A stretch of DNA of 45,525 nucleotides from contig JALUCS010000056.1 of NCBI GenBank assembly GCA_027050205.1, forward strand, positions 1 to 45,525, given 5' to 3'. Position 1 is the stretch's first letter; each line of letters begins with the position of its first letter. This DNA comes from a candidate division WOR-3 bacterium (GTDB taxonomy: Bacteria > Hydrothermota > Hydrothermia > LBFQ01). The notes below the pieces were generated by a model, which worked only from the letters and a program-made list of their open reading frames with translations, was not told where the DNA came from and searched no databases. The translations under genes were made by a program, and so were the position numbers. Below, piece after piece: positions 4,510 to 42,051 of this stretch.

Positions 4510-6669
4510 TCATCGGATCATCAGGCGGTAGCTCCGTCCCTCGCTTACGACGAAGAACACTCCCCTGTGGAGCCTCACCCTCTGGCCGCCCTTGAAGGAG
4601 CCGATCAGACGGCCGTCGCTCGCATAGACCTTCGCCCCCTTCAGGAAGAGGACGGTCTGACCGGATACGGTGTAGGGCAGGTAGGAGGATCTGGACCTGG
4701 GAGACTCCTCAACGGATAGGCCGTCCCCGTTTCCGCAGGGGCCGGCGTCCACGACCACGAGGCTGTAGGGCTGGGTGCCGCCGGGTTTGGGGTTGTTGAG
4801 GGCGCGACCGTATACCTTAACCCTCCATATCCCCCTCTTGGCGGGGGCGACGTACACCACCTCAACGTTGTTTAAGTAGTCCCTGCCTGTCGGGTTGGGT
4901 ACGGAGACCCCATCGCTGATGATGTTGCCGTGGTACTCGTTGCCATCCGCCCCTTCAACTATGAGGTCAAGGTCGTTCTGGAGGTAGGCGCCGGGGGCGT
5001 CCGTCCAGGCCAGCACGATCTTCACGTAGTCGGTGTACATAGACTCGTTGCAGCCAACGATGACGTCGTAGACGGCCGTATCGCCGGCGGAGATGCCAAC
5101 GCTGTCGTCGACGACGAAGAGGCGGTGCCTGTACTCCGGGGGCATATCGGCGAAGAAGAGGACCCTGCTTAGGTTGACCCCTCCGAAGCCCACCTCGTTG
5201 TTGGGAGGCGTAGGCTCGTACTCAAGGGGCTGGGCGGAGGCTATGAGGGCGGCCTTCAGAAGGGACCCTTGGGGTACGAAACCGTTGGCCGTGTCCCTGA
5301 CTCCGTTGGGATACCAGCCCTCCCTGAAGTACTGGCGGACGAGGAGGGCCGTACCGGCGGCCGCAGGGGCGGCCATAGAGGTACCCTGAAAACCGCTCGT
5401 GAGGATGCTGCAAGAGTAAGTCCTATCGGTCCGATTCCGAGCAGAGCCTATGAAGGAAGGTGAATAATGATAGTCCCCTCCGGGGGTCATAACGTCGGGT
5501 TTTATCCTGCCGTCGTAGGTGGGACCCTGGGAGGAGTAGTAGGCCCTATGCTCATGAGGTTTCGTAAAAGCGTCAAATGCACCTGTAGCACCAACAGTAA
5601 GGGCATTTTTGGCCGTAGCAGGGGAACCTAAACTACCGTCCTCGGAGGCATCTTCATCGCTAGAGTTCCCGGCGGCAACTGTCACCAGAGCATCCGGATT
5701 GTCCCACATGAAAGCGTCCACATCTTGAGCTGCAGAGCTGTAGGTGTTAAATGCAGATCCCCAGGAGAAGTTGACCACCCTTGCTCCCCGGCTGTAGAAG
5801 TCGGTCAGGATATCGTATATGGATGAACTATAACATATACTTCCGCAACTGCCGCAGGAGGGACCTCCCGCGTCCCCGAATACCAACTTGGCTTTGTAGG
5901 CCATCCCCTTGTAGTTATAGAAGACGGAACTCGCAGAGTCGGGATAGCCAACGAAGGTTCCGCTTACGTGCGTACCGTGGGAGTAGCTACACGAGGCAAA
6001 GTCGTCGGCGTAGCTGGAGAGTACCATATAGTCCAGGACCTTCCTGTGGGTGGGGCCGGGTAGGACGACGCTGGTATCCCTGAAGAAGCAAGAGTAGTAG
6101 TCCAGACCGGTGTCCATCACCCCACCTACCTCACCCTCACCGTTTATGCCGTGCGCCCAGACGAGGGAATCCCCCTCAACGTGGGTCTGAATGTACCAGC
6201 GGGTATGGTTGTTCCAGAGGTACTTCCTTAGGTCCGGTTCCACCTTGGAAACCACCTCAAAGGCGGCGAGCTGACGGGAGATCCTTAGGACATCGCCGGG
6301 TGGCACGGAGACCTTGAACCTTGGCATTATGGAGGTGGGGAACCTTTCGGGCAGGAGGCCGAGGGAGGAGATGGCATCAAACAGCGTAGCCTCGTCCTCA
6401 CCGGGGTAGCCGGAGACTATGAGCCTCACCTTTCCGCCGTACAGGGCGTCTTCCAACTTGCCCTCGTAGATCAAAGGGCTAACCTTCAGGGCTTCGGGGA
6501 CGGGGCGGACGTTTGCGTCCTTCAGCTTGAGGTTTTCGGGAACGTACGCGATGTAGCCGTAGGACGGGACGTACTGGTATATGCGCACGCCTCGCTCCCG
6601 GAGGCTCTGGGCGTTTATCCCTTCCTCTCCACTTATCAAGGCCCATCCACCTATCAGGACCGTTATCAT
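4510..6669 (-). CDS. S8 subtilase (KP-43-like) with T9SS type A-like C-terminal sorting domain
   Basis: Catalytic DTG / HGTHV / GTSMA; KP-43-type C domain (WTD, NDLDL, NNVE); tail VYASDGRL..LHRGVFFV..RLMIR. Confidence 0.9.
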   Translation of the reverse strand: MITVLIGGWALISGEEGINAQSLRERGVRIYQYVPSYGYIAYVPENLKLKDANVRPVPEALKVSPLIYEGKLEDALYGGKVRLIVSGYPGEDEATLFDAISSLGLLPERFPTSIMPRFKVSVPPGDVLRISRQLAAFEVVSKVEPDLRKYLWNNHTRWYIQTHVEGDSLVWAHGINGEGEVGGVMDTGLDYYSCFFRDTSVVLPGPTHRKVLDYMVLSSYADDFASCSYSHGTHVSGTFVGYPDSASSVFYNYKGMAYKAKLVFGDAGGPSCGSCGSICYSSSIYDILTDFYSRGARVVNFSWGSAFNTYSSAAQDVDAFMWDNPDALVTVAAGNSSDEDASEDGSLGSPATAKNALTVGATGAFDAFTKPHEHRAYYSSQGPTYDGRIKPDVMTPGGDYHYSPSFIGSARNRTDRTYSCSILTSGFQGTSMAAPAAAGTALLVRQYFREGWYPNGVRDTANGFVPQGSLLKAALIASAQPLEYEPTPPNNEVGFGGVNLSRVLFFADMPPEYRHRLFVVDDSVGISAGDTAVYDVIVGCNESMYTDYVKIVLAWTDAPGAYLQNDLDLIVEGADGNEYHGNIISDGVSVPNPTGRDYLNNVEVVYVAPAKRGIWRVKVYGRALNNPKPGGTQPYSLVVVDAGPCGNGDGLSVEESPRSRSSYLPYTVSGQTVLFLKGAKVYASDGRLIGSFKGGQRVRLHRGVFFVVSEGRSYRLMIR

Positions 6670-6711
6670 AACACCGGTATTATACAGGAGGGATGTCGGG
6701 CTTGGCGGTCC

Positions 6712-8094: not shown

Positions 8095-8095
8095 A

Positions 8096-10723
8096 CTACC
8101 TCAACACCGCCCTGACCCCCCGCCTTGGGAAGACCTCGTATCCAACCGTTAGACGCAGGGGGACCTGGGAGAAGAGGAGGAGGTCAAGGTTGCCGTTGAT
8201 GATGAGGTGGGGGACGTCCCCCTCGTAGGGTATGGCCACCCCCCGCCCGTAGTGGAGGTACTCCAAGGTGAGGCCCGGATAGGCGCGGGTTACGGCCAGA
8301 TAGGAGAAGAAGGCCCAGGGGGACGGCGGGATGAGGCTGAAGTAGAGGTCGGGGAAGCGGGGGGAGAATACGTCCGGATAGACGGAGAGGGAGACATGGG
8401 CGAAGGTGTCGGAGACCACCGTAAGGGTGGGGTAGTCGTAGAGGGAGACCGGACTGGAGTAGGGTAGGGCGAAGCCCTCAAACCGGAGGTTGAAGAGGAG
8501 CCACTTCCGGAAGGCCAGGACCCCGGAGAGGCCGAAGCCGGGACCTCCGTTGTATGCCACGTACCCCCTTAAAGCGAAGCCGTCCGCCACGACCGTCGCC
8601 GTTGGCTTGTACGCGTAGGCCCTTGATACGCTCCCCTCTATCCCCCCTGCGAAGGAGATCGTATCCGACGCCAGCCTCCCGAAGAGGAAGAGGCCGATAC
8701 TCTCCCTGCCATCTATATGGTTGAAGGGGATGGAGACCGTCGGCCGGAGGGTGAGGTCGTAGTACTTGAGCCTGAACCTCGTATCGTTGGAGACGTAGGC
8801 CCCTATATCAAGGCCGAGGGTGGGGAAGAGGCCGTCGTAGGTGTAGGAGAGGGAAGCATCGTTGTAGAGGAGGGTGTCGGAGTTCCTTATCCGGATACCG
8901 CCGAAGTAGGAGAAAAGGTAGGAGTGCCTGTAGAGGACGTCGCTCCCCGCCGTGAGGAGGCCGGCATACATATCCGTAAAGGAGAGGGTGTCCGTCTCGT
9001 AGGTGAGGGCGAATCCAAGGGGCTGCCAGAACTTGGGGATGAGGTGGGGGATGGGGTTGTAGGGGCGGGATTTGGAGAGGTCAAGGGGTGGGATTTCAAC
9101 TTCCCTGCGGTAGTCTCTGGGGAGGGAGGCGGCCTCGCTCCTTACGGGGACGGTGGCCACGTCTAAGCCCTTACCCCGGAGGGCCAGGACCACGAGGCTG
9201 TCGCCGTGGGGCTGGGGGTAGAGGAGGGAGAGGGAGTTCCGGGCCAGCCTCCTGAACTCCCCGTCCTTGAACAGGTAGGGGGTGAAGTTCTCCGTAAAGA
9301 TGACCCCCTCCTCCCCGACGTAGGATAGGAGGGAAGGCTCCCGCGTTTGGGTTATGAGCCGCACCGAGTCCTCCCCCCAGGGGAGGTAGGCGACGTCCGT
9401 CCAGCCGTGATGGTAGAAGGTGAAGTAGAGGGTGTCCCCGTGGAACTTCAGGTCGGTAAAGCCCTCCCCTTCCTTCCCCCGCAGCAGCACCTTACCGCCG
9501 AGGAGGACTATGCTCTGCCCCGGCCCCTCCCTCCGTACGTACGCTACGCCGTAGGGGGTGGAGACGGGGGAGTGCGCCCTCTCCCCGGAGGTTAGCCTTT
9601 TGACCTCGCCGGTGCCGAGGTTGAGGGAGTAGAGGTCGGAGAAGACGTAGAAGTTCCGCACCACCCGGTACTGGGAGAAGAGGATAACGCTGTCCCCCAT
9701 CCAGGAGAGGGAGCCGACGGTGAGGGCGCGCACCGAGCGGATCACCTTACCGCTCTTTAAGTCCATCACCTTGAGGGAGGGGTACTCGTAGGTGTTGTCC
9801 TCCGTATATGCGAGGTACCTTCCGGAGGGGGAAATGGATAGGGTACCCTTACCGCTTCCGTTGTCCGTCAGGAGCCTGTACCCAACCCTCCGGACCTTGA
9901 GGGCCTCCAGCCTAAGGCTCGTTCTCCACCGGTTGAAGTCCCCCATCTCCCTCAAGAGGTAGGGGCCGGGGATACACCCGCACGAGCAGAAGGTTATGGG
10001 GTCCTCAAAGTAGGAGGAATTGACCACCCTCTTTACCACCTCCCGCTCTCCCTTCCTGCCGGCGAGGAAGTTGAGGTACATCCCACCCCACAGGTACCAC
10101 CTCCCGAAGGGCCACCGGTCCACGTACATACTCATTAAGTCGGGCGTGAGCCTGCCGCCGTCCTTGACGTAGGCGAGCATCTGGTCCGTGAAGTAGCGGT
10201 TGTTGAGCCTCCCGTACCCCCCCTTTGACTCGTAGTAGGTGGCTATCCCCTCTATCTGCCATCCGGGGTCCAGGAGGTTGGGGAAGGCGCACATCGCCGG
10301 GTTCCTCCCGAAGATGAGGCGGGATAGCTCCGGAAGGGGCAGCACGCCCCAGAGGGGATGGGGTTTGTCAAGGTGGAAGGTATGCACCAGCTCGTGGGAC
10401 AGGAGGTCCTCAATCCACCCCTCCATACTCCCGAAGTAAGGTTCCCCCACCGGCGGCTGGAGGTAGAGGGTTACGGTGTTCTCCGGGAAGGGGGTTGAGA
10501 AGCCGTTGGAGAAGTCGTAGGCGTCTATCAGGACGAGGTTGACCTTATCCGGGGACCACCCGAAGGTTCGGCTGTACAGGGAATAGAGGCTCTCGGCCAC
10601 GTAAGCCACCCGCGGAACCCAGCCCTCCGTACCCCTGTGGTAGTGTATCAGGAAGTGGCGGGTCTCGTAGGTGCGGAACTTCAGGTCTGGGGGGAGCTTG
10701 AGCTGGGCGAGGATAAGGAGCAT
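8096..10723 (-). CDS. Outer-membrane/periplasmic protein: zincin-like domain + TolB/PD40 beta-propeller + Omp85-like beta-rich C-terminus
   Basis: ETRHFLIHY, HELVH (HExxH), WQIEGIATYYES; SPSGRYLAY propeller repeats; PYNP linker followed by amphipathic beta strands. Confidence 0.75.
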   Translation of the reverse strand: MLLILAQLKLPPDLKFRTYETRHFLIHYHRGTEGWVPRVAYVAESLYSLYSRTFGWSPDKVNLVLIDAYDFSNGFSTPFPENTVTLYLQPPVGEPYFGSMEGWIEDLLSHELVHTFHLDKPHPLWGVLPLPELSRLIFGRNPAMCAFPNLLDPGWQIEGIATYYESKGGYGRLNNRYFTDQMLAYVKDGGRLTPDLMSMYVDRWPFGRWYLWGGMYLNFLAGRKGEREVVKRVVNSSYFEDPITFCSCGCIPGPYLLREMGDFNRWRTSLRLEALKVRRVGYRLLTDNGSGKGTLSISPSGRYLAYTEDNTYEYPSLKVMDLKSGKVIRSVRALTVGSLSWMGDSVILFSQYRVVRNFYVFSDLYSLNLGTGEVKRLTSGERAHSPVSTPYGVAYVRREGPGQSIVLLGGKVLLRGKEGEGFTDLKFHGDTLYFTFYHHGWTDVAYLPWGEDSVRLITQTREPSLLSYVGEEGVIFTENFTPYLFKDGEFRRLARNSLSLLYPQPHGDSLVVLALRGKGLDVATVPVRSEAASLPRDYRREVEIPPLDLSKSRPYNPIPHLIPKFWQPLGFALTYETDTLSFTDMYAGLLTAGSDVLYRHSYLFSYFGGIRIRNSDTLLYNDASLSYTYDGLFPTLGLDIGAYVSNDTRFRLKYYDLTLRPTVSIPFNHIDGRESIGLFLFGRLASDTISFAGGIEGSVSRAYAYKPTATVVADGFALRGYVAYNGGPGFGLSGVLAFRKWLLFNLRFEGFALPYSSPVSLYDYPTLTVVSDTFAHVSLSVYPDVFSPRFPDLYFSLIPPSPWAFFSYLAVTRAYPGLTLEYLHYGRGVAIPYEGDVPHLIINGNLDLLLFSQVPLRLTVGYEVFPRRGVRAVLR

Positions 10724-10933
10724 AATGGGTATTTTAACGGGGATAGAGGAAAGGTTGGCGGAATTTTCCCCTGCTGCGCATCAAAGACCTAACGGCGTCG
10801 GGGATGTCAAAGCGCACATGGTTATACGTTGCTTCGGAGGTAGTGTGATGCACACTTTCAGGAGACCCGTATTGCACCGAAGGCAATCCGTTCCCGAGGT
10901 TTTCAAAATCCGTCATAGGGGGTACGAGAATCT

Positions 10934-11014
10934 TGAAGTGCGACTTACTATTTCTTAAAGTGTAAGTTTAAATTTTATAAAATATATCTTTCAGTTTTTA
11001 AAAGTGCGTTGTTC
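10934..11014 (+). repeat. Degenerate 22-bp-period array, 4 units
   Basis: TGAAG-tgcga-CTTAC tatttct TAAAG-tgtaa-GTTTA aatttta TAAAA-tatat-CTTTC agttttt AAAAG-tgcgt-TGTTC; unit starts 10934/10956/10978/11000. Confidence 0.7.
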
Positions 11015-11502: not shown

Positions 11503-11529
11503 TCCCGTCAAACGGCGAACGGAACCCCA

Positions 11530-11565
11530 GACAACGGACAGGTATCCCCCTACCGGCTCAATACC
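11530..11565 (-). repeat. Dispersed 36-bp intergenic repeat, copy 1
   Basis: Reverse complement GGTATTGAGCCGGTAGGGGGATACCTGTCCGTTGTC matches 20420-20455 at 31/36. Confidence 0.85.
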
Positions 11566-11634: not shown

Positions 11635-11800
11635 TCCTTTATGTCCCCGCTCCCCGATACCGTTCCGCTACGGGGCCGTTCCTTGTCCCTTCGCTCACCA
11701 AGTGTCAGATTTTTGTAGTAATTCTGATGTGTAAAATTTGTTCTGGTTGTGTGCAAAATGTATCATGTTTATAACTCATCGCCGTTATAATTTTCTTTCT

Positions 11801-13240
11801 ATGCTGTGGATCCTGATATCGCAGGACCTGTACGGCGTATGGAACGAGGCGTGGCCGATGTTTCGGCACGATTACAAGCGTACGGGGCATTACAAGGCGT
11901 GGAAGGCCTCGTGTTCCTCTATGTCCCACCTCTACGACGTCGTCCACGGTACTATGGACGAAAGTGTGATAAGCAGGGACGCCAACGGGGATGGGTATAC
12001 GGACGTGATAGGGACCCAGGCCGAAGCGTACGGCGTTAAGGTGATACACGGATGGAACGGTACCACCATCTGGCAGTCCGGATCGGACAGGTACTCCTAC
12101 CCTCCCATACCCGCAGCCGCCTCCGATACGAGGGTCTTCGCCGTAGGATACAACTACTTCCAGGTTTTCAACCTCTCCACCGGTTCAACTATCTACAGGT
12201 ACTCAAAAGGTGGCTCTAGGGATCCCGCTCCTGCCGTAGCCGATATAGATAACGACGGCTGTCCGGAGGTATATACGGCCTTCGGCCGTACGGCCGTCGC
12301 CATAAACGGCTGCGCCTCCTCCTACTCTACCTTATGGACCTACTCCCTACCTGCGTCTCCCTACGCCCCTGCCCTTGGGGACGTGGATGGGGACGGAGAC
12401 CTTGAGGTCCTGTATCCCACGAGCAACAGCACTGTTTACGTCTTGGACGCTGCCACTGGCAGTTTCCACAGTTCCTTCTCGTTTGGCTCTCCCTACTCAG
12501 GTATGCCCGATTACACGGTGGCCTTAGATGACCTTGACGGGGACGGGAAGGACGAGGTCGTGACCGTTACCACCTACTACATCAAGGCCCACGATTTCAA
12601 CTACGGTTGGAGTGAAAATTGGTCCGTCTTCATCTACTCCGGTGGCTCTGTCCCTGCCCTTGGGGACAAGGACGGCGACGGCCTACCCGACGTATGGGTC
12701 ATAAGGAACAACAACGTCTACGTCTATAAGGGGACGGATGGTTCCCTCCTCGGTAGCTCCAGCGTCGGCGACCTGAACTCCGACTATCCTCCATCCCTCG
12801 CTGACCTTACCGGCGACCGGATCCCAGACGTTCTGGCTATCAAAGGCTCCCATTATGTCCGGGTCATCAACGGTGCGACCCTCACCCCGGTAATGACGCT
12901 CGGCTCAACTCCTTACGGCATAACCTCCGAGGTGGTCGTCTTGAAGCTCCGGAATACCCTCGGCCTTACGGTCGGGGATCACTCCTGCCACATAAACACT
13001 TGGGGCGGCTGTCTCATCGGTACGGACGACGAGCTATCCGTAGGAGAGAAGGAGGATGCCCAATCCACCCTGAAGTTTGACGGCACGTACGTAGTGGCAA
13101 AGGGGAGGGAGATAGAAATCTACGACCGCTCCGGACACATCCTCCTAAGGGGCTACGGCAAGGTCTCGGTGTCCTCCCTGCCCAAGGGCATATACTTCGC
13201 CCGCTCCGGCGAGAAGGTCATAAGGATTGCAGTCAGGTAG
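11801..13240 (+). CDS. FG-GAP/VCBS repeat beta-propeller protein with T9SS type A-like C-terminal domain
   Basis: WPMFRHD..RTG N-terminal motif; repeated DxDGDGxxEV/DV Ca-binding motifs; tail IYDRSGH..LPKGIYF..KVIRIAVR; start 11801 preferred (TATAAT 9 nt upstream), ATG 11765 also possible. Confidence 0.85.
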   Translation: MLWILISQDLYGVWNEAWPMFRHDYKRTGHYKAWKASCSSMSHLYDVVHGTMDESVISRDANGDGYTDVIGTQAEAYGVKVIHGWNGTTIWQSGSDRYSYPPIPAAASDTRVFAVGYNYFQVFNLSTGSTIYRYSKGGSRDPAPAVADIDNDGCPEVYTAFGRTAVAINGCASSYSTLWTYSLPASPYAPALGDVDGDGDLEVLYPTSNSTVYVLDAATGSFHSSFSFGSPYSGMPDYTVALDDLDGDGKDEVVTVTTYYIKAHDFNYGWSENWSVFIYSGGSVPALGDKDGDGLPDVWVIRNNNVYVYKGTDGSLLGSSSVGDLNSDYPPSLADLTGDRIPDVLAIKGSHYVRVINGATLTPVMTLGSTPYGITSEVVVLKLRNTLGLTVGDHSCHINTWGGCLIGTDDELSVGEKEDAQSTLKFDGTYVVAKGREIEIYDRSGHILLRGYGKVSVSSLPKGIYFARSGEKVIRIAVR

Positions 13241-21737: not shown

Positions 21738-22043
21738 ATGAGAAGGGCCTTAACTTTAGAAACGATAGGAGGGGCGCTTCTCCTTTCGTCCTGCGCTACC
21801 ATAAGCATAAGCGGGGAAGCCCAGCTTGCCCCGAAGTCCGCCGTGTGCAGAAAGGTCAACCAGAAGCAGATCTGGTTCCTCTTCGGCCTCTTCCCCATCG
21901 GAGACAACTCCACCGACGACATCATACCCAAGGGCAAGAAGGTCAAGATAGAGACCAAGTTCACCCTGACGGACTTCGCTATAGAGTTCCTACCCAGCGG
22001 CTTCTTAGTAAGTCGCACAGCCGAGGCCTACGTGTGTGAGTAG
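21738..22043 (+). CDS. Bor/Iss-like small lipoprotein
   Basis: SD AAGGAGGT; signal MRRALTLETIGGALLLSS-C; WFLFGLFPIG and RTAEAYVC pattern. Confidence 0.7.
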   Translation: MRRALTLETIGGALLLSSCATISISGEAQLAPKSAVCRKVNQKQIWFLFGLFPIGDNSTDDIIPKGKKVKIETKFTLTDFAIEFLPSGFLVSRTAEAYVCE

Positions 22044-33539: not shown

Positions 33540-36002
33540 TCAGGGTACGAGGACCTTCAGGACCTTTCCCTCATAAACGGCGAAGTATATCCCCCTCCCC
33601 AGCCTGTGCCACCCTTCGGTGAGGACCCCTAGGAGCCTACCGGAGGGGGAGTAGATCCTGACGCCGTCTTCAAGGACGACTATCCCGTTCCGCTCAACCC
33701 TTACGGGTACGTACCCCCCCTTAGACGTTGGCACACCGAGGACGGGGGGACAGACGGGAGAGTAAGTGTGGAAAACCTTCAGGTACATGCTCGCCGAGTC
33801 TCCGGGAGAGAGGGTGTAGGGGCCCACGGAGAGGACCAGCGACCAGTCGCCTACGGTGTCGGCCGCGAAGGAGAGGGAGCCGGAGATGAGGGCGTACTTC
33901 ACCGGGTCGTAGAGGGTGTCGTACCAGTCTCTGTTCCTTATGAAGGAGAGGTGGGCCGGAGCCAAGGGGGTCTGGAAGCCGAGGTATCCGGGGAAACTGC
34001 TGTCCGCCGCCCATATCAGGAGGCACCGTTGGGATGCGAAGACCTGTCCCGTATCGGAGGATGGCCATCCGACGTCGGGGTCGGCGAAGAAGGCGAGGTA
34101 GCCGGTTATGGGGTAGGGGGTGGTGTTGAAGACGGTGAAGGCGAGGTGCAAAGTGGCGTCCCCCGGATAGGCGAAGGCCTGCGTCCGGAACCTCAACCCC
34201 CTGGGCGAAGGGTGGCCGGAGTCCGTCTGCATAACGTACCAGCCCTGGGGGACGAAGGGGAGGGGGCGGAAGGTGTCCGCAGGGAGGAAGTCGGAGTCGG
34301 AACCCTGGGGGTTTATCCATGCGTCCGCAACGTAGGAGGTGTCCGTAGCGAAGGCGAAACTGCCGAGGTAGAGGAGGGAGACCCCGCCGTAGAGGAGCCG
34401 GAACCACTTCCCGGACCGGGTGAAGGAGATGTGCAACGCCCCCGTATCCACGTCCACGTACTCCTCCGGTGGGGTACCGTAGCGGAGCAGGACCTTATAC
34501 AGGAGGGTATCGGAGAACTCAACCCGCAGGTTGAAGGGTACGTAGGTGCCGTCCGTGAGGCCGGAGGCGGAGACCCCGTAGAGGAGGGTGAGGGTGTCGG
34601 AGGCCGGGAGGGTGGCCGTCCTGACCGGGTCTGCTATGGAGACCCCTGAGGATGGAGTTGTGAGGACGAAGGTGGCCGTACCGGAGGCGGGGGCGTGGTT
34701 GAAGACCCTGATCTCCAGCGTATCCGTACCGTCAAAGGTGCCGTCCAGCACCCTCCAGGAGACCACCTCCGGCAGGAGCGGGGGAGGGGAGAGGAGGTTG
34801 AGGGAGCGCCACACGTTCAGCCTGCCCCATCCGTAGGTGTTGTTGGGGTAAGGGGAACCCCACGGGAAGGTGTCGGCCCCGGAGGTCAGGGCCGAGTACA
34901 CCTCCTCAAAGGTGAGGGTCGGGTCCCTCTGGAGGAGGATAGCCACGGCCCCGGCCACTAAGGGGGAGGCCAGGGAGGTACCGGACCACGCCTGAAACCC
35001 CCCTCCGGGCATAGTCGTCAGGACGCCAACGCCGGGGGCGACGAGGTCGGGCTTGAGGAGGTTCCACGTGGGGTAGGGCCAGTAGGTGGTGTCGTTCCAG
35101 GGGGGCCTGTTGGGGGCCGGCCCTTCAGAGGAGAAGTGCGCTATCGTATCGCTCTCGTAGGTTGCCCCCACCCCTATAACGGTGGGGTAGTTCCCCGGTG
35201 AGAAGCACACGCCGGAGGTGTTGCCGATGGCGAAGACCGGGACTATGCCGGCCAGCCTGAGGAGATAGACGTCGTTCCAGTACTCAAGTGAGCCGTCAGG
35301 CCCCCCCGTCTTCCAGGAGCCGTTATAGACCCGGATGTTGTAGCCGCTGTCTATCTTCCACTCCAATATCCTCTCAAATCCGAGGTGGGTGGTTATCTCC
35401 GACGAGGTGAGGTACTTACCGAAGAGCCTCACGACCGCCACCTTGGCGCCTGGGGCCACGCCCGTACTGTCGGCCACTATCACGCCGCTTACGATGGTGC
35501 CGTGGGGGAACTCGCTCTCAACTGGCCTTGGGTTACGCTCAACGGGGTCGTACCAGAGGCCGGACCACTTGGAGATGAGGTAGGGGTGGGAGGTGTCAAT
35601 GCCCGTATCCATCACCACCACTATAACGCCCTCACCGTCGTAGCCAGCGGCCCAGGCCGAATCCGCCATTACCCTGTCAAGCGCCCAGGAGCCGGTTGAG
35701 GTCAAATCGGCGGGGGACGGAAGGACGAGCTGGACGTACCCGGCCTTCCGGTAGCCTATCGCCCCGGTCTCCCTCGCGAGGTCCGGGAGGAGGTCCCCAT
35801 CGGTGAGGACGGCGACGGCGTTGGCCGTTGGCAGCGGTATCACGCTATCCACCCCCGGAAGACCCTTAACCCTGTCGGCTACGCTCCTTATCCGGGCCTT
35901 CAGGTAGTGGAAGAGGGCATGGGGGGAGTTCATCCTGTACTCCCTTACGTCCCCGTAGCGGAGGATGTACCAATCGGAGGTTATGAGGCTCAAGAGTAGC
36001 AC
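33540..36002 (-). CDS. S8 subtilase with T9SS type A-like C-terminal domain
   Basis: MDTG / HGTIV / GTSLASP triad; KPDLVAPG; YGWGRLN; tail IYSPSGRL..LGRGIYF..KVLKVLVP. Confidence 0.9.
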   Translation of the reverse strand: MLLLSLITSDWYILRYGDVREYRMNSPHALFHYLKARIRSVADRVKGLPGVDSVIPLPTANAVAVLTDGDLLPDLARETGAIGYRKAGYVQLVLPSPADLTSTGSWALDRVMADSAWAAGYDGEGVIVVVMDTGIDTSHPYLISKWSGLWYDPVERNPRPVESEFPHGTIVSGVIVADSTGVAPGAKVAVVRLFGKYLTSSEITTHLGFERILEWKIDSGYNIRVYNGSWKTGGPDGSLEYWNDVYLLRLAGIVPVFAIGNTSGVCFSPGNYPTVIGVGATYESDTIAHFSSEGPAPNRPPWNDTTYWPYPTWNLLKPDLVAPGVGVLTTMPGGGFQAWSGTSLASPLVAGAVAILLQRDPTLTFEEVYSALTSGADTFPWGSPYPNNTYGWGRLNVWRSLNLLSPPPLLPEVVSWRVLDGTFDGTDTLEIRVFNHAPASGTATFVLTTPSSGVSIADPVRTATLPASDTLTLLYGVSASGLTDGTYVPFNLRVEFSDTLLYKVLLRYGTPPEEYVDVDTGALHISFTRSGKWFRLLYGGVSLLYLGSFAFATDTSYVADAWINPQGSDSDFLPADTFRPLPFVPQGWYVMQTDSGHPSPRGLRFRTQAFAYPGDATLHLAFTVFNTTPYPITGYLAFFADPDVGWPSSDTGQVFASQRCLLIWAADSSFPGYLGFQTPLAPAHLSFIRNRDWYDTLYDPVKYALISGSLSFAADTVGDWSLVLSVGPYTLSPGDSASMYLKVFHTYSPVCPPVLGVPTSKGGYVPVRVERNGIVVLEDGVRIYSPSGRLLGVLTEGWHRLGRGIYFAVYEGKVLKVLVP

Positions 36003-36008
36003 GTGGAT

Positions 36009-36034
36009 ATTTTAAAGGATGCCCGCTTTAAAAT
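36009..36034. promoter_or_regulatory. Back-to-back divergent -10 boxes forming a 9-bp inverted repeat
   Basis: ATTTTAAAG-gatgcccg-CTTTAAAAT; TAAAAT lies 6 nt before GTG 36002 (-) and 10 nt before ATG 36045 (+). Confidence 0.65.
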
Positions 36035-36044
36035 CCCCTCCCCT

Positions 36045-37640
36045 ATGAAGTTCGTCTTCGTAACGGGTGGCGTCCTCTCCTCCCTCGGCAAGGGCATAAC
36101 CTCCTCCTCAATCGGGCTTCTCCTCAAGAGCAGGGGTCTGAAGGTCACCATCGTTAAGATAGACCCCTACCTCAACTACGACGCCGGGACTATGAACCCC
36201 TACCAGCACGGGGAGGTTTTCGTAACGGACGATGGGGGGGAGACGGATCTGGACATAGGGCATTACGAGAGGTTCCTGAACGAGGACCTCTCCAAGAGGA
36301 ACAACGTAACGGCCGGGCAGGTCTATCTTGAGGTGGTGGAGAGGGAGAGGGAAGGGAGGTACCTCGGTGCGACCGTCCAGGTCGTCCCCCACCTTACCAA
36401 CCTGATAAAGGAGCGGATAAAGGAGGTGGCCAAGGATTACGATGTGACCGTCGTGGAGATAGGGGGGACGGTGGGGGACATAGAGAGTCTCCCCTTCCTT
36501 GAGGCCGCCCGTCAGATGGGCCTTGAGGAGAGTTCCTTCTACCTCCACGTATCCTACGTCCCCTTCGTCCGTTCCGTTGGCGAGATAAAGACCAAACCCA
36601 CCCAGCACTCCGTCCAGAAGCTCCGGGAGATAGGCATCCAGCCGGACGCCCTCGTCGCCCGCGGGGAGAAGCCCCTGACACCGGAGGCCCGCCGTAAGCT
36701 CGCCCTCTTCTCCAGCCTCCCCCTGAGGGCCGTCATAAGCGCCCACGACCTCGCCAACGTCTATAGGGTCCCCTTCCTCCTCGCCGAGCAGGACCTGGAC
36801 GACCTCATATTTGAGAAGTTGGGCATAGGGATATACAGCGACAGGGACCTCTCGGAGTGGGAGGACTTCGTCCGGAGGGTGGAGGGGGCCTCCGAGGTGG
36901 TGAGGGTGGCCATAGTGGGGAAGTACATAGAGGTGAGGGACGCGTACAAGAGCCTGATAGAGGCCATAATCCACGCTGGGGCGCACATCGGCGTAAAGCC
37001 GGAGATAACCCTGATAGACGCCATAAGGTTGGAGCAGGAGGGAATGGACACCCTGAAGGAGTACGACGCCATAATCATAGCCGGTGGTTTCGGGAGGAGG
37101 GGCATAGAGGGTAAGATAGGGGCGATAACCTTCGGTAGGGAGAGGGGGATCCCCACCCTCGGTATCTGCCTCGGTATGCAGCTGATGACGGTTGAGTGGG
37201 CGCGGAACGTCCTCGGCCTGAAGGACGCCCACAGCGAAGAGTTCAACCCCTCAACTCCCCACCCCGTCATCCACCTCCTCCCCGGCCAGAGGGACATAGA
37301 CCGCCTCGGTGCCACTATGAGGCTCGGCGGCCAGGACATTAACCTCGTTGAGGGAAGCCTGATACACTCCCTCTACGGCAGGAGGGTGATCCGGGAGAGG
37401 CACAGGCACAGGTACGAGTTCAACGACGCGTACAGGGAGGAGTTTGAAAAGAGCGGCCTAAGGATAACGGGGGAGGCCGGGGGTCTGGTGGAGGTGATAG
37501 AGTGGCCGGAGCATCCCTTCTTCTTGGGGGTGCAGTTCCATCCGGAGTACACCTCCCGACCCCTCCGCCCCAACCCCGTGTTCGTCGGACTCCTAAGGGC
37601 TGCACTCGGAAGGCACCCCTCCCACGATACGCCCTTATAA
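36045..37640 (+). CDS. pyrG: CTP synthase
   Basis: MKFVFVTGGVLSSLGKG, HGEVFV, KTKPTQHSV, GICLGMQ, ERHRHRYE, QFHPE; start moved to ATG 36045. Confidence 0.97.
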   Translation: MKFVFVTGGVLSSLGKGITSSSIGLLLKSRGLKVTIVKIDPYLNYDAGTMNPYQHGEVFVTDDGGETDLDIGHYERFLNEDLSKRNNVTAGQVYLEVVEREREGRYLGATVQVVPHLTNLIKERIKEVAKDYDVTVVEIGGTVGDIESLPFLEAARQMGLEESSFYLHVSYVPFVRSVGEIKTKPTQHSVQKLREIGIQPDALVARGEKPLTPEARRKLALFSSLPLRAVISAHDLANVYRVPFLLAEQDLDDLIFEKLGIGIYSDRDLSEWEDFVRRVEGASEVVRVAIVGKYIEVRDAYKSLIEAIIHAGAHIGVKPEITLIDAIRLEQEGMDTLKEYDAIIIAGGFGRRGIEGKIGAITFGRERGIPTLGICLGMQLMTVEWARNVLGLKDAHSEEFNPSTPHPVIHLLPGQRDIDRLGATMRLGGQDINLVEGSLIHSLYGRRVIRERHRHRYEFNDAYREEFEKSGLRITGEAGGLVEVIEWPEHPFFLGVQFHPEYTSRPLRPNPVFVGLLRAALGRHPSHDTPL

Positions 37641-37652
37641 TACCCGTCTCAA

Positions 37653-37726
37653 GGCGGCGTAGCTCAGCCGGTCAGAGCGAGGGTTTCATAAACCCTAGGT
37701 CCGGGGTTCAAGTCCCCGCGCCGCCA
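37653..37726 (+). tRNA. tRNA with CAT anticodon (most likely elongator Met; Ile2 not excluded), CCA not encoded
   Basis: Acceptor GGCGGCG/CGCCGCC-A; D arm GCTC/GAGC; anticodon arm AGGGT-TTCATAA-ACCCT; T arm CGGGG-TTCAAGT-CCCCG; the paired 1-72 position rules out initiator tRNA. Confidence 0.93.
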
Positions 37727-37730
37727 CTTA

Positions 37731-38831
37731 GTGTATCTGCAGACGCTTCCTCTGTACTTCTACAGCGTTAGTTTTGGCGGGTACGTGAGCTTGGAGAATA
37801 CCAAGTCGTTGGAAAGCACACTCAACAGGGCGACGCTCGTAGGCTCACCCCACTTTATGATGGATTACGACTTCGCCTATCACTACTACTACTCTGTCAA
37901 ATCGTCGGCCAACGAGTACTCCTCCTACGTTATGTCCCTCCGCACACCCTCCTTCGTGTTTCCAACGGCGGTTAAGGTCGGCAGGAAGTTCGGTGGCACC
38001 TTCCTGCAGGTGGGAGGGGAGTTCTGGGGCAGCTACAGGGACTACGTCGGAGACTATCAGGGGGACGTCCTGACCCTACTGCTGGCCAAAGAGAGTTCCA
38101 TCGTAGGGGAGTTCGGGTTTGAGGCCTTCTACACCCACTTCCAGAGGAGCGCCTACATTGGCTCCTACCCGGTGGATACGGGTAAGGGAGGCGGCACCGT
38201 AGTGGACTTCTACGAGGAGTGGATCTATCGGGACGGCTTCGGGATGAAGTTTGCCCGGTACGGTGAGGACTACAACCTCTCCGGAGGCTTCTCCTACATG
38301 TCGGCGGATAGGGTGGTCCCCCTGTTCCTGGAGTTCAAGAAGCTCCTCGGCAGTTCAACCATCTACTTCAGGCAGACGGCCTTCTGGGGTAGCACCATCC
38401 TGCCCCCCAAACTCCACATAGGCTACGACAGGGAGTTCGTGATGGGGAGGAGGAGCCTCTACCTGTCCCTATTCACGGGGATACTCCTACGGCCGAGCGA
38501 GGTCTTCGGTCTCAAGAGGCCCCCCATAAGCGGCCTGTCCCTCAAGTACGTCTCCTACTCCCCCTCCGGAGAACTTACCCTGATGGGTAGGGGCTACGCC
38601 ACCAAGGCGGACAAAAACGAGGTGGGAGGTGAAGTCTACCTCGCCTACAGGTTCGCCCGTAAGTGGAGGCCAAAACCCTTCGCCGGCTTCATCTACGCCG
38701 GGGACGTGAGGGGTCCCTATCTGGGGGTCAGCTTCGGGACCCTCGGAAGGCGGTTCTACGTAGCATACTACCACGCGCACAAGGCGGTTTCCCTCGGTTT
38801 GGAGGTGTCCTATGGAGTTTTTGCTCTTTAG
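37731..38831 (+). CDS. Hypothetical protein, probable outer-membrane beta-barrel
   Basis: 366 aa; Tyr/Phe/Gly-rich alternating beta strands; host-like codon usage. Confidence 0.65.
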   Translation: MYLQTLPLYFYSVSFGGYVSLENTKSLESTLNRATLVGSPHFMMDYDFAYHYYYSVKSSANEYSSYVMSLRTPSFVFPTAVKVGRKFGGTFLQVGGEFWGSYRDYVGDYQGDVLTLLLAKESSIVGEFGFEAFYTHFQRSAYIGSYPVDTGKGGGTVVDFYEEWIYRDGFGMKFARYGEDYNLSGGFSYMSADRVVPLFLEFKKLLGSSTIYFRQTAFWGSTILPPKLHIGYDREFVMGRRSLYLSLFTGILLRPSEVFGLKRPPISGLSLKYVSYSPSGELTLMGRGYATKADKNEVGGEVYLAYRFARKWRPKPFAGFIYAGDVRGPYLGVSFGTLGRRFYVAYYHAHKAVSLGLEVSYGVFAL

Positions 38832-39261
38832 CCTCGGTGTAAAGACCACCTTTCCGGGGTTGGTGTCGGACGTCCTCCCCAAGGCGGTGGCTTTCCCTTC
38901 GGTCTCCATAAGCGCCGGGTTAGGTGAGTACTCCTATACGTCCGTGGAGATGGACGTCCTCAAGCTCAAGACCGGCCAGTACGAGATCTCCCTCCTATCC
39001 TCTACCTTCTACGTCGGCACCTTCGTCAAGAACTACGATATAGCCGTAGGCTACACCGTCTCCGGTGTGGGGATAAACACCCTCGCCATAGAGGATCAGG
39101 GATATATGGCTATCACACTTAAGGGGGGGTACGTCAAGAGGTTCGGTAAGTTGGCCCTGAACGGGGGGATGGTCCTGCCGATATACGGGATGGTGGCGAG
39201 CGGCAAGTTCTCCGTCATACCCGTCCCTCTACTCTACCTGTCCCTCTCCTATGGACGGTAG
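38812..39261 (+). CDS. Hypothetical small beta-rich (outer-membrane-like) protein
   Basis: 149 aa amphipathic strands ending LYLSLSYGR; overlaps both neighbours. Confidence 0.6.
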   Translation: MEFLLFSLGVKTTFPGLVSDVLPKAVAFPSVSISAGLGEYSYTSVEMDVLKLKTGQYEISLLSSTFYVGTFVKNYDIAVGYTVSGVGINTLAIEDQGYMAITLKGGYVKRFGKLALNGGMVLPIYGMVASGKFSVIPVPLLYLSLSYGR

Positions 39262-40975
39262 GGTAAGGGAGGCCATCCTGAACGCCCCGGACTCACCGGG
39301 TGTGTATATCTTCAAGAGGGGAGGAAAGCCCCTCTACGTCGGGAAAGCGAAGTCCCTCGCGAAGAGGTTAAAGGCCTACCTTCACGCGGAGGGGCGGATA
39401 GGCGAGATGGTTGAGGAGGCGGAGGAGTTGGAACTGGTACCCACCACGACGGAGGAGGGGGCGCTCCTCTTGGAGGCCAACCTCATAAGGAGATACCGTC
39501 CCCGGTACAACGTAAGGCTCAAGGACGGGAACCCCTTCCTCTACATCCATCTAACGGACGAGGAGTTTCCCCGGATAACCGTCGTAAGGAGACCCCCGGA
39601 AGGGGGTGAGACCTACGGTCCGTTCCTGCGTAGGGCCACCCTTAGGGAGTTCTTGAGGGTGGCCAGACGGCTCTTCCCGGTAAGGAACTGTTCCCTGAAG
39701 CTCCCAGCGAAGGGTAAGGTATCCCCCTGCGTGGAGTATCACATAGGGAGGTGTCTCGCCCCCTGCGCCTACGAGGTCGGAGAGGAGTACGCCGAGGCCG
39801 TGGAGGGTCTGAAGCGTCTCCTTAGGGGGGACGAGGAAGGGGTAAGGAGGTTCCTGTACGGTAAGATGATAGAGGAGGCGGAGAGGTACAACTACGAGGC
39901 GGCCGCCCTGTGGAGGGACAGGTTGAGGGCCTTTCAGGAGGTGGTGGGCAGGAAGAGGGAGAGGAGGGACCTGTGGGTGGTGGCCTCCTACGATAGGGAG
40001 GCGGTCGTGGTCCTCTACGTTCTCCATGGGAGCGAGGTGGGGGACGTATATCCCTTTTATGTCTCCGCCTCCATAGAGGGGGACAGGGGGACACTCCGGG
40101 AGTTTCTGTCTATGTACTACGCCCGTTCCTCCGATCCCCCGTCCGTCGCCCTCACCTACCCACCGTTGGAGGAAGATGAGATAGCCGGCGTTAGGGTGGA
40201 GCCGCCCGGTGAGGCGGAGGAGGAGGTCCTGAAGGTGGCCTTAGACTACGCCCAATCCAAGCTCCGCGACGTCCTCTCCCGTAAGGAGCGTACGGATCCA
40301 GCCCTCGTCTCCCTCCAAAAGCTCCTTGGCCTCCCCGACGTCCCCCGCAGGATAGAGGGCTACGACATCTCCCACACCTTCGGTGAGTACAAGGTCGCCT
40401 CCCTCGTCGTCTTCAAAGACGGCCGCCCCCAGAAGTCCGAGTACAGGCGGTACAAAATCAGGGAGGTCTCCGGGATAGACGACTACGCAGCGATGTACGA
40501 GGTGGTGAGGAGGAGGTTCCGGAGGTTGGTTGAGGAGGGAGGGGAAAGGCCTTCCCTCGTCCTGATAGACGGGGGGCCGGGACAGCTGAAGGCCGCCCTA
40601 CGGGCCATGGAAGAGGTGGGGGTTGAGGTGCCGGCCGTGGCCCTCGCCAAGAGGTACGAGACCCTCCACCTGCCATCCGGTGAGGTCGTGCAGCTCCCCC
40701 TTAGCGACCCCGCCCTAAGGCTCCTTATGAGGGTCAGGGACGAGGCCCACAGGTTCGCCCTCAAGTACCATAGGACCCTAAGGAGCAAGAGGTACGGCGC
40801 CAGCGTCCTGGACGACATCCCCGGCATAGGGAAGAAGCGGAAGAGGATCCTCCTATCCCACTTCGGTTCGGTGGACCGCATAAGGTTGGCTTCTTTGCAG
40901 GAGATAGCCTCCCTCCCCACCTTCAGCCTCTCCCTCGCCAAACGGGTCAAGGATTACCTGTCGGGGAAAGGTTGA
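39251..40975 (+). CDS. uvrC: Excinuclease ABC subunit C
   Basis: GIY-YIG (PGVYIF..YVGKAKSL), Cys cluster, RIEGYDISH, LIDGGPGQL, RDEAHRFA, HhH IPGIG. Confidence 0.97.
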   Translation: MDGRVREAILNAPDSPGVYIFKRGGKPLYVGKAKSLAKRLKAYLHAEGRIGEMVEEAEELELVPTTTEEGALLLEANLIRRYRPRYNVRLKDGNPFLYIHLTDEEFPRITVVRRPPEGGETYGPFLRRATLREFLRVARRLFPVRNCSLKLPAKGKVSPCVEYHIGRCLAPCAYEVGEEYAEAVEGLKRLLRGDEEGVRRFLYGKMIEEAERYNYEAAALWRDRLRAFQEVVGRKRERRDLWVVASYDREAVVVLYVLHGSEVGDVYPFYVSASIEGDRGTLREFLSMYYARSSDPPSVALTYPPLEEDEIAGVRVEPPGEAEEEVLKVALDYAQSKLRDVLSRKERTDPALVSLQKLLGLPDVPRRIEGYDISHTFGEYKVASLVVFKDGRPQKSEYRRYKIREVSGIDDYAAMYEVVRRRFRRLVEEGGERPSLVLIDGGPGQLKAALRAMEEVGVEVPAVALAKRYETLHLPSGEVVQLPLSDPALRLLMRVRDEAHRFALKYHRTLRSKRYGASVLDDIPGIGKKRKRILLSHFGSVDRIRLASLQEIASLPTFSLSLAKRVKDYLSGKG

Positions 40976-42051
40976 TAGAGGCCTGTATAGTCCTCGCCTC
41001 TAACTTCCTGTGTAGGGATACGGACCTCAAGGGGGCCGACAGCCTCGTTCTCCATCACCTCCACCACCTCGCCGATCACGGGTACCCCTTCGCCCGCGCC
41101 AGGGTGTGGGTGTGGGGTAGGGAGTACGTCGCCCTCGTGGATAGGGGGAAGTTCTACGTCGTCAGGGAGGCGCTGGCCGAGGGTAGAGCCTCAATGCCCC
41201 TCGTCCGTTGGAGCCTCAAGGGGATCCGGGGCAGGGCCTTCAGCCTATCTCGCATCAGGGAGAGGAGGCGACTTTTAAGGTACTACGGCGTAAGGATGGA
41301 GGTCCTACGGAGAGACGGGGAGGTGGTCTTCCGGTTCGGGGGTGGGGGAGGGGAGATAGGAGGAGAGTTGAGGGGGGGAAGGGGGGAAAAAATCGGAGGC
41401 GCCATAACCGTTGAGGGCAGGAATCTGTTGGCCTCCGGGGTCCTTCTGTCCCTGATGGCCTCCTTTGACTCCTTGGATATGTACGTCTCCGTCCGTACCG
41501 ACGTCCCCCCCCTCTACGGTTTGGGTCTAAACCTGGAGGGGGAGGTGGTGAGGGCGTCCGATACCCTGTCCCGATCCGCCCTCCTACTGCCCTACGTCTG
41601 GTCCTACCCCTACAGGTTCCTCTTGGGGGGTGGGTACTCCGGACTCCCCTTCGTAGCCGCGGGAGTGGGTAGGGTGGAGGGCTTCAGGTACGAGGTCCTC
41701 GGCTTGATATCCAAGGGGGGAGTGGGGTACAGGCTAACCTTCTCCTACGGATGGGTTTCAGGCTTCGTCTTTAGAGGTGTGGGGGGATGGCTTGAGAGGG
41801 TGGGAGGGATGGACCGCTTCAGGCGTTTGCCCCCCTCCGGGTACCTCTCCGGGAACTTCGCCGTCCTCCGGTTGGACGCCCACCTACTCCGCTTCGGGAG
41901 GCTCTCCATCGGTCCCTTCGGGGACGCCCTGTACGAGGAGGGCGAAAGGCCCCTTTACGCTTACGGCGTTTCCCTACGATTCGGTGGCACCCTCTCCCTC
42001 TTTCTCTCGGCCGACGGCTACGTGGGCTTTGGCCTGAAGACGGGGCTTTGA
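40972..42051 (+). CDS. Divergent Omp85/TamA-like protein (POTRA remnant + small barrel)
   Basis: LADHGYPFARARV POTRA motif; NLLASG barrel start; GGMDRFR loop; terminal VGFGLKTGL strand. Confidence 0.55.
   Translation: MIEACIVLASNFLCRDTDLKGADSLVLHHLHHLADHGYPFARARVWVWGREYVALVDRGKFYVVREALAEGRASMPLVRWSLKGIRGRAFSLSRIRERRRLLRYYGVRMEVLRRDGEVVFRFGGGGGEIGGELRGGRGEKIGGAITVEGRNLLASGVLLSLMASFDSLDMYVSVRTDVPPLYGLGLNLEGEVVRASDTLSRSALLLPYVWSYPYRFLLGGGYSGLPFVAAGVGRVEGFRYEVLGLISKGGVGYRLTFSYGWVSGFVFRGVGGWLERVGGMDRFRRLPPSGYLSGNFAVLRLDAHLLRFGRLSIGPFGDALYEEGERPLYAYGVSLRFGGTLSLFLSADGYVGFGLKTGL

Follow-up and report, generated by a model that had tools for sequence, protein, structure and literature searches.

The window and its proteins

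The window analyzed here, a stretch of 45,525 nucleotides, is contig C56 of the draft genome of a WOR-3 hot-spring bacterium (G000; 2.05 Mb in 135 contigs, 93.5% complete), and the subject of this report is a set of its proteins that begin with Met and a very short apolar run in the place of a classical Sec signal peptide. The observation is confirmed, recurs in relatives and lies well beyond chance expectation. The genes concerned, among them that of SprA, the outer-membrane translocon of the type IX secretion system (T9SS), are collected in Table 1 together with neighboring features.

Table 1. Genes, promoter boxes and other features of the window
Feature	Positions	Strand	Start and N-terminus	Remarks
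sprA, T9SS outer-membrane translocon, 1851 aa	13255..18810	-	GTG 18810, (M)IWLLLS-YEDYF	
Peptidase S8, 820 aa	33540..36002	-	GTG 36002, (M)LLLSLITS-DWY	Pfam PF00082, E 6e-39
-10 box TAAAAT of S8 gene 33540..36002	36009..36014	-		6-nt spacer to GTG 36002; direct reading
-10 box TAAAAT of cytoplasmic pyrG	36029..36034	+	ATG 36045	10-nt spacer; direct reading
Peptidase S8, 719 aa	4510..6669	-	ATG 6669, MITVLIGGWALISG-EEG	Pfam PF00082, E 5e-40
875-aa protein (HExxH, beta-propeller, beta-rich C-terminal part)	8096..10723	-	ATG 10723, MLLILA-QLKLPPD	"Omp85-like" label unconfirmed
FG-GAP protein	11801..13240	+	ATG 11801, MLWILIS-QDLYG	Pfam FG-GAP_3, E 6e-21
DUF4159 protein, 199 aa	26082..26681	+	MLLLIALL-KIARLQYDGGGDWY	PF13709, E 6e-58 from residue 9
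Lipoprotein-like ORF	21738..22043	+	classical signal MRRALTLETIGGALLLSSC	Shine-Dalgarno AGGAGG; internal contrast to the short N-termini
149-aa ORF	38812..39261	+	MEFLLFS...	"small barrel" label unconfirmed; 20-nt overlap with preceding ORF
359-aa ORF	40972..42051	+	TTG start overlapping uvrC stop, (M)IEACIVLAS...	"TamA-like" label unconfirmed
tRNA-Met	37653..37727	+		ARAGORN; TATAAT 37636-37641, 11 nt before mature 5' end

A first-pass annotation of the window had quoted eight short N-termini, all of which are in the sequence where it placed them, and had given each protein a label. Five of these labels stand on Pfam or TIGR04189 matches; the other three belong to the ORFs at 8096-10723, 38812-39261 and 40972-42051, for which no family was matched in Pfam or NCBIfam. 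In the five verified proteins (SprA, two S8 peptidases, the FG-GAP protein and the DUF4159 protein) Met is followed by 5-13 apolar residues and no Lys or Arg precedes the run.

SprA scores 317.7 bits against the equivalog TIGR04189, for which the cut-off is 200, and SprA_N is matched too; its apolar run is six residues long (IWLLLS). Its start codon is placed 1 nt past the stop of the upstream isochorismatase-like gene, and in its own frame four open codons (SSCK) are followed upstream by a stop as the fifth codon. Likewise, three open codons (NIH) lie between the in-frame stop, the fourth codon upstream, and the GTG of the 820-aa S8 peptidase, and in the DUF4159 gene a TAG stands directly 5' of ATG 26082 in frame, so that the upstream limits are those the first-pass annotation had described. 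The 719-aa S8 peptidase has a run of 13 residues (MITVLIGGWALISG-EE), not 7, and a TATAAT at 6679-6684, 9 nt upstream of its start. For the 875-aa protein, a weak colinear paralogue (BLASTP E 0.001) of a PD40+Omp85 protein encoded elsewhere in the genome, a TAAAAT at 10731-10736 lies 7 nt upstream of the start, and no ATG, GTG or TTG is found among the 19 open codons upstream of it.

The FG-GAP gene, in which a TATAAT at 11786-11791 lies 9 nt upstream of ATG 11801, also has an in-frame ATG at 11765, from which a classical-looking MFITHRRYNFLSMLWILISQ (MFITHRRYNFLS-MLWILISQ) would be read. This codon is unlikely to be the start, because the codons for HRRYNFLS are the promoter box itself and because, of two FG-GAP paralogues sharing the start architecture, one is without any upstream ATG. 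Recoding of stop codons upstream of the short starts was also considered; the upstream frames yield no signal-like sequence.

Promoter boxes and leaderless starts

Genes of G000 were taken from a home-made codon-usage caller (1836 genes), and each was given its box-supported start, or else a start supported by a Shine-Dalgarno sequence, or else the first start codon, the box being a TAnAAT hexamer with at most one mismatch to TATAAT. This box stands 6, 7, 8 or 9 nt before the first candidate start in 141, 87, 191 and 129 genes respectively, a peak of 548 of 1753 genes, compared with at most 0.15% per spacing for internal start codons. When any candidate start and spacings of 5-12 nt are allowed, 883 of 1833 genes have the box, whereas of 18,665 internal start codons 0.4% do. 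Many start codons are fixed by this spacing.

Over 877 sites the promoter-like consensus is approximately TTnCnnCC(G/T)TAnAATA, longer than a -10 box, with C at -6 in 90% and at -3 in 69% of sites and A after the hexamer in 53%; no -35 signal was seen in the logo of these sites. The reading of the box as a promoter is supported by the TATAAT ahead of tRNA-Met, and its fixed, short spacing before start codons suggests that the genes it precedes, about 46% of the total, are probably transcribed leaderless. A compact arrangement of two boxes lies within the window, where the start codons of the 820-aa S8 peptidase (minus strand) and pyrG (plus strand) at 36002-36045 are 42 nt apart and each has its own TAAAAT in the gap, which apparently holds back-to-back leaderless promoters.

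Short N-termini as a genome-wide class

For a survey of the whole genome the apolar run was defined as the residues after Met up to the first D, E, K, R, N, Q, H or P. Among the 883 box-supported starts its length is bimodal, the counts by increasing length being 394, 159, 68, 47 and 17 and then 30, 35, 31, 37, 21, 13, 10, 9 and 4. Taking 7021 internal Met residues as the null, runs of 5-13 are in excess (190 observed, 101 expected) and runs of 2-4 are depleted (132 observed, 246 expected). A class rule applied to 1725 proteins gave 288 "short, no n-region", in which the absence of Lys and Arg before the run is a matter of definition, 277 "classical-like", which take in many cytoplasmic Rossmann N-termini and membrane proteins, 685 with no apolar run and 475 in three other classes. 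A strict set of 188 short members, requiring promoter or Shine-Dalgarno support and a mean Kyte-Doolittle value of at least 2, has total lengths including Met of 7 (53 proteins), 8 (41), 9 (37), 6 (24) and 10 (21), the mode being 7.

Upstream of the short-class starts no in-frame ATG, GTG or TTG is present in 205 of the 288 genes, and 164 have at most ten open codons there. Box-supported starts make up 64% of the short, 59% of the classical-like and 46% of the no-apolar-run class; leaderless starts as the cause of the short signals were rejected, given the similar shares in the first two.

The proteins that bear the short N-termini were identified by a Pfam scan of 111 of the 288, namely those in the 20 densest 20-kb stretches. 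Matches were obtained for 71 and none for the other 40, and a hand tally of the 71 gave 36 clear envelope proteins, 13 ambiguous, 5 inner-membrane and 17 cytoplasmic proteins. The 36 include BamA (MLLIFLS-QAQGG), PD40+Omp85 (MLVLLLS-QWSYG), SurA (MIILLAA-QLDTL), LolA, TolC, FadL, TonB-type barrels, an OmpA-family protein, Amidase_3, PCuAC, an HtrA-like protease, eleven FG-GAP proteins and four BNR proteins. As control, 97 proteins without an apolar N-terminus were scanned in the same stretches at a stricter E-value of 1e-12; of the 72 with matches only 4 are of exported type, one of them an S8 peptidase whose start was mis-called by the home-made rule, and the remainder are ribosomal proteins, RpoA, a tRNA synthetase, MutS, glycolytic enzymes and similar. 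By this comparison cytoplasmic proteins do not begin with such runs equally often; the first-pass annotation had said that its proposal would be refuted if they did.

T9SS cargo provides a second sample. G000 has 19 matches to T9SS C-terminal domains, only 4 of them above the Pfam cut-off, and 6 to S8; of 19 places entered from these matches, 3 are without a gene call, and the 16 left together with the two S8 genes of the window make a set of 18 genes. Thirteen of these are clearly short and lack an n-region, two are ambiguous, and three are classical (MKRFAIALGLLGATPLMG, MRRFSLLAGILAIYGGELQA and MMRKIARYLAGATVIAGVVSPLLAYC), from which it appears that both kinds of signal work in the same cell.

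Some multi-copy families also begin with short apolar runs. Two families of ~210-aa proteins without a Pfam family, on contigs C109, C101, C126 and C114 (e.g. L102:8974-10977, L107:18667-19987 and L116:7533-9161), start MLLYLLS-QPVELEGGWWA... and MLLFVYLLA-DLDE(S/G)(K/R)Q.DSI... and carry short signals. Paralogues of ~200 aa of the Uma2 family (putative restriction endonucleases) form tandem arrays on C93 (L100:7078-10177), C47 (L113:2875-5355) and C73 (L118:5205-6947); one subfamily, starting MGVALAEKPE..., has at least eight copies with Pfam matches, and in a second, three strong Uma2 copies are interleaved with DUF5618 proteins. A separate feature of C109 (L102:12457-17568, minus strand) is a 97-aa ORF matching only the first 71 positions of a class I tRNA synthetase, followed by a DNA methylase gene and then a full 862-aa class I synthetase; the fragment may be a duplicated or interrupted 5' end.

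Orthologues and relatives

Alignment across the genome and its relatives, as the first-pass annotation had proposed, places the short N-termini on families whose homologues are Sec substrates and finds them conserved in the lineage. The SprA short start is kept in the readable loci of 10 relatives, six of the same genus (e.g. VVWLLLSSEDYF, VFWFLLSYEDYF and VLWVLLNYEDYF) and four of the same family, belonging to a sister genus (e.g. VIIFLAYTDFSE and MIILLAYLDFSE); a further same-family locus (L012), whose 5' end is broken by Ns, was left out of this count. Sister-family N-termini are MLILFAVAQ-VEW and (M)IWILVSWNVE, so that SprA starts short throughout the genus, the family and the order as sampled. 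Elsewhere in the class, SprA forms of 10-17 residues without an n-region occur in several families (MFLIFSFLLFAIF-EERD, MPGWESLLGLLLLAQ-EAP), and one family has a classical 25-residue signal, (M)HRFLVNTRVWPFLLSLAFAVSLRGQ.

DUF4159 proteins show a comparable gradation. Among the best 120 database homologues, a list of other pipelines' gene calls that is biased towards relatives and whose names put G000 within candidate division WOR-3 near "Candidatus Caldipriscus", 31 have 8 residues before the motif (Q)IARLxYxGGGDWY (MIFALIGF-QIARL, MLFLLFSF-QIARL), and others have 12-17 residues, up to classical signals of about 20-35 residues (MRDKKILLLILLFGINVVSAQ-NFSIARL), before the same motif.

Comparison with orthologues of a WOR-3 genome that has the signal recognition particle (SRP), G186, shows that the short forms replace classical signals at the same position. 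From 400 kb compared, 29 queries had matches and 13 best-hit pairs passed the filter; 5 of 6 envelope orthologues carry K/R-bearing signals of at least 20 residues in G186 where G000 has the short form, whereas in four cytoplasmic pairs the N-termini match. In the PD40+Omp85 pair, MLVLLLS/QWSYGYNK of G000 is aligned with MKSSYLAYLLLGIFCVFSLASA/QYYFSKNK of G186, Gln on Gln.

The starts of the short-form proteins are accordingly judged to be correct on three independent lines of sequence evidence: in-frame stops, the promoter box and conservation in relatives.

Sequence features and cleavage

In the short signals Leu dominates positions 2-7, Trp is common at position 3 and Ser or Ala at position 7. 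Of the 288 short N-termini, 62 have Gln as their first polar residue, compared with 18 of 685 proteins without an apolar run and a Gln share of 4.4% among these polar residues in the proteome. This Gln is most often at residue 8 (30 of 62), with Ser or Ala at -1 in 40 and Leu at -3 in 36 of the 62. Classical signals of G000 also end in this manner (PAYA-Q, LFA-Q, GLNA-Q). In the other short signals -1 is often Leu, Val or Phe.

Net charge over the 12 residues past the run is -0.42 for the short, +0.45 for the classical-like and +0.19 for the control N-termini, and the downstream acidic residues may supply the charge asymmetry that is normally given by the n-region.

The contrast drawn from the single lipoprotein-like ORF of the window extends to the genome, where a lipobox is found in 6 of 288 short and 70 of 277 classical-like N-termini. 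Lipoproteins of G000 keep classical signals, MRR or MKR followed by 12-18 apolar residues and the lipobox Cys. The enzymes Lgt and LspA act on this Cys, and lipoproteins plausibly stay classical since both need a membrane-spanning anchor that holds it at the outer face.

Export machinery

Searches for SRP components covered samples of draft genomes, and absence is here to be read as not found in those searched. The M domain of Ffh (PF02978) is found neither in G000 nor in any of 31 relatives; it is missing from all 84 genomes searched in 19 families of the phylum, compared with 104 detections among 201 genomes overall. The 84 include every one of the 62 genomes sampled from the class to which the window belongs, some of them 100% complete in 3 contigs. 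The positive control was detected 14 times out of 14. When G000 was searched by tblastn with six Ffh proteins of WOR-3, the best match had an E of 0.16. The NG GTPase domain shared by Ffh and its receptor FtsY (PF00448) gives two matches near 1e-70 per genome in SRP-bearing families and none at E<=1e-5 in 15 families, while family f3 has matches only around 1e-6. The two best NG candidates of G000 (19 bits) were identified as a MeaB-like GTPase and RadA. The small SRP RNA (RF00169) is likewise not found in G000 or in any of 58 genomes of SRP-lacking families, compared with 84 of 150 overall, following the same family pattern, and the large SRP RNA (RF01854) was found in none of 61 genomes of the class. 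SecA (PF07517), which all 6 congeners and 196 of the 201 phylum genomes sampled possess, serves as a positive control for these searches.

Three further families, f19, f23 and f27, have a single NG match (about 1e-40 to 1e-47) without an Ffh M domain or SRP RNA, and this lone match could be FtsY alone, an FlhF-like protein or an intermediate of SRP loss.

The Sec apparatus is otherwise ordinary-looking, SRP being undetected in the organism and in its whole class. The modified recognition machinery that the first-pass annotation had supposed is supported in part: the change in the class is a lack of detectable SRP and not a modified SRP, and SecY and LepB, with LspA and YidC, look canonical. 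SecY of G000 (446 aa, C95:12985-14322, L026) aligns end to end with the Aquifex and E. coli proteins, and in an alignment of 21 genomes no fixed substitution separates the 12 SRP-lacking from the 9 SRP-bearing ones; position 187 is Ala, as in Aquifex SecY. G000 and G006 share replacements of residues kept in at least 85% of the others, at 249, 257, 260, 264, 348, 350, 357, 418, 430 and 439; these cluster in the cytoplasmic loops (presumably C4 and C5) and the C-tail and include GVRAG for what we take to be the usual GIRPG. They rest on two genomes of one genus, as the row for family f2 (G012) is mostly gapped, its gene having an in-frame TGA and its best ORF possibly being in the wrong frame. 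One type I signal peptidase, LepB, is present (TIGR02227, 139 bits), as are LspA and YidC. YidC2-like proteins carry a basic C-terminal tail, and such a tail was considered as a substitute for SRP; YidC of G000 has no extended one.

Interpretation

The short N-termini are probably genuine Sec signals consisting of the h-region only, with putative cleavage. Such a signal would be formyl-Met followed by 5-9 (up to ~13) residues rich in Leu, Ile, Val, Phe and Trp, with no basic n-region and little or no c-region, and then usually an acidic residue or Gln or Pro. Signals of this kind would most likely direct non-lipoprotein envelope proteins to SecYEG, with SecA as the likely motor. Where the run ends in Ser or Ala before Gln (M-L-[LW]-[IL]-L-[LI]-[SA]/Q), the single LepB probably cuts before the Gln, which at residue 8 would leave a presequence of about 7 residues; cleavage of this kind is likely for part of the set. 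There are other cases in which the run extends over what is mature sequence in orthologues, and for these cleavage is doubtful. What can be read directly from the genomes is where the proteins start, that these starts are conserved, to which families they belong, that orthologues have classical signals in their place, and which genes of the machinery are present; from these we infer export, dependence on Sec, targeting by SecA and cleavage.

A number of findings weigh against this reading. SecA was not found in the G000 assembly; this absence is rejected as biology and put down to incomplete assembly because congeners and nearly the whole sampled phylum have the gene. The gene caller, the start rule and the class rule are all home-made, and the figure of 288 overstates the class, since the 17 cytoplasmic proteins among the 71 with Pfam matches (Rossmann-type, Cys-first and 8 Uma2 paralogues starting MGVALA-E) are counted in it. 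G000 has classical signals beside the short ones. At nine positions of the pore ring or of prl mutations, which we take to be F67, I82, I86, I191, I278, S282, F286, L407 and I408 of E. coli SecY, the G000 protein is wild-type by hand mapping. As to cleavage, -1 is not a small residue in 13 of the 62 cases with Gln next, the DUF4159 forms ..SF-Q and ..LL-K do not fit the rules of type I signal peptidase, and in two of the G186 pairs (MLFLLSYVLIPMD vs ...AGAMFAKILIPMD and MLLLIALLKIARL vs ...VIAQNFTIARL, G000 given first) the apolar run of G000 overlaps residues that are mature in G186; cleavage may therefore fail in many cases. Glutaminyl cyclase (PF05096) was not found in G000, and the sole strong M28 match is a 581-aa frame that is not cyclase-sized.

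To these is added that neither SRP loss nor any visible change of machinery explains the shortening on present evidence. The start region of DUF4159 was compared across 60 genomes (29 of SRP-lacking families, 31 of SRP-bearing ones), and the distances from start to motif overlap (medians by eye about 20 and 22, respectively). Short forms without an n-region occur in the SRP-bearing families f20 and f21 (12 residues), f16, f36 and f37 (12-14) and f29 (8-9), and basic classical signals in the SRP-lacking f7, f9, f11 and f25. The most reduced forms are those of f1 and f2 (8 residues) and f5 and f6 (9-11), all SRP-lacking, together with the SRP-bearing f29. Since lengths do not track SRP, its loss as the cause of short signals was rejected for DUF4159, and SRP loss and short signals are separate facts of the lineage; links of the short signals to SRP loss, to leaderless mRNAs or to thermophily stand as suppositions. 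The missing n-region looks like a tendency of the whole phylum that has gone furthest in f1, f2, f5, f6 and f29.

An alternative that is unlikely, although kept alive by the two overlapping pairs, is that the run is an uncleaved tag which targets SecYEG or the membrane, is too short to anchor, and is released without signal peptidase. It would account for the many runs in which -1 is occupied by Leu, Val or Phe instead of a small residue and the next residue is Pro, Asp, Glu or Lys, and a segment of 6-9 residues indeed cannot span a bilayer. It does not, however, predict the enrichment of Gln as first polar residue with Ser or Ala before it, the same A/Q ending in the classical signals of G000, the alignment of Gln on Gln after ASA of the orthologue in one G186 pair, or the presence of a canonical LepB.

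An unknown route, in which a factor replacing SRP reads Met and the apolar run, possibly at the ribosome, and passes the chain on to SecYEG or YidC, appears improbable. With no SRP component found in the class, inner-membrane proteins must be targeted otherwise, and the two discrete signal populations in one genome and the clustering of the G000 and G006 SecY replacements in cytoplasmic loops and C-tail would be in keeping with such a factor. But no candidate was found, YidC is without the extended basic tail, short signals without an n-region occur in SRP-bearing families also, and SecY shows no fixed difference between SRP-lacking and SRP-bearing genomes.

That the short N-termini are an artefact of mis-called starts, frameshifts or assembly errors, or are equally frequent on cytoplasmic proteins, is very improbable and largely refuted: the upstream ATG of the FG-GAP gene, some upstream in-frame start codon in 83 of the 288 short-class genes and the 17 cytoplasmic proteins in 71 speak for it, but SprA, S8 and DUF4159 have an in-frame stop within 0-4 codons of the start, the same short starts recur in at least 10 relatives whose genomes were assembled independently as well as in public gene calls, boxes stand at fixed spacing, run lengths are bimodal, and envelope families are enriched (36/71 vs 4/72).

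If h-region-only signals are thus the favored reading, a broader statement may be made, for and against which we see the chances as about even: that a whole class of free-living diderm WOR-3 thermophiles (with Caldipriscus) has lost SRP, its receptor and its RNA, and that in one order within it uncharged presequences of ~7 residues serve to export the greater part of the non-lipoprotein envelope proteome, with BamA, SurA and the T9SS pore among the proteins concerned. Signal-peptide rules (basic n, h of at least 7, c of at least 3) underlie every secretome predictor and much of secretion engineering. If true, export of essential outer-membrane factors with ~7 uncharged residues would set a new lower bound for signals and would explain the under-calling of secretomes by predictors in such lineages; Sec targeting and recognition by signal peptidase would need far less than an n-h-c signal; and co-translational SRP targeting would not be universal in cellular life. 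A natural clade without Ffh, FtsY and SRP RNA makes SRP-independent targeting to the inner membrane a testable question.

Comparison with known systems

In published accounts, a textbook signal peptide has n-, h- and c-regions of 1-5, 7-15 and 3-7 residues (PMC6579943), SRP is called conserved in all living organisms (PMC7844537), deletion of SRP is viable in the laboratory in Streptococcus mutans (PMC8546722), and suppressors of SRP loss are described in E. coli (bioRxiv 10.1101/2021.01.06.425660, PMC7844537). Phrase searches of the literature, supplements excluded, returned no report of natural loss of ffh or of Sec signals this short, and no paper in which WOR-3 and signal recognition particle occur together; within the same scope, signal peptide and signal recognition are unmentioned in the WOR-3 and Caldipriscus papers searched, as is leaderless in those covered by that term (PMC4791363 lay outside it). 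A cultured relative, strain sy37, which clusters with Caldipriscus, is described (PMC12285271).

Like the laboratory strains, the SRP-lacking families indicate that bacteria can live without Ffh and FtsY. Those strains are, however, engineered deletions, whereas here the three SRP components were not found in 62 genomes of a natural class and in further families, and YidC of G000 is without a YidC2-like basic tail.

With classical Sec signals cut by type I signal peptidase the short N-termini share an N-terminal apolar core, the protein families, the position before the mature domain and, in many, the small -1 and Gln +1, LepB being present. They differ in having no basic n-region, in a core of 5-9 residues with little or no c-region, which brings the whole to about 7-10, and in a downstream region that is acidic and not neutral or basic; over the class the run is 5-13 residues, many being below the textbook 7. 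Lipoprotein (type II) signals are used in the same genome and by the same SecYEG, with LspA present; unlike the short N-termini, which rarely have a lipobox, they stay classical.

In Bacteroidetes the "Q-rule" describes Gln at +1 of type I signal peptidase sites, which is cyclized to pyroglutamate. In the T9SS-bearing G000, Gln is likewise enriched directly after both short and classical signals, although its assembly yielded no PF05096 cyclase for this step.

Deinococcus and Actinobacteria are bacteria rich in leaderless mRNAs. G000 resembles them in that roughly a third to half of its genes have a -10 box 6-9 nt upstream of the start codon and differs in that its box is extended by C-rich upstream positions without a -35 signal; box-supported starts in G000 are found outside the short-signal class as well.

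E. coli prlA (secY) suppressor strains export proteins with defective or missing signals. Although SecY of G000 is wild-type at the nine pore-ring and prl positions listed above, these strains offer a parallel to the short signals, in that a translocon can accept very weak signals.

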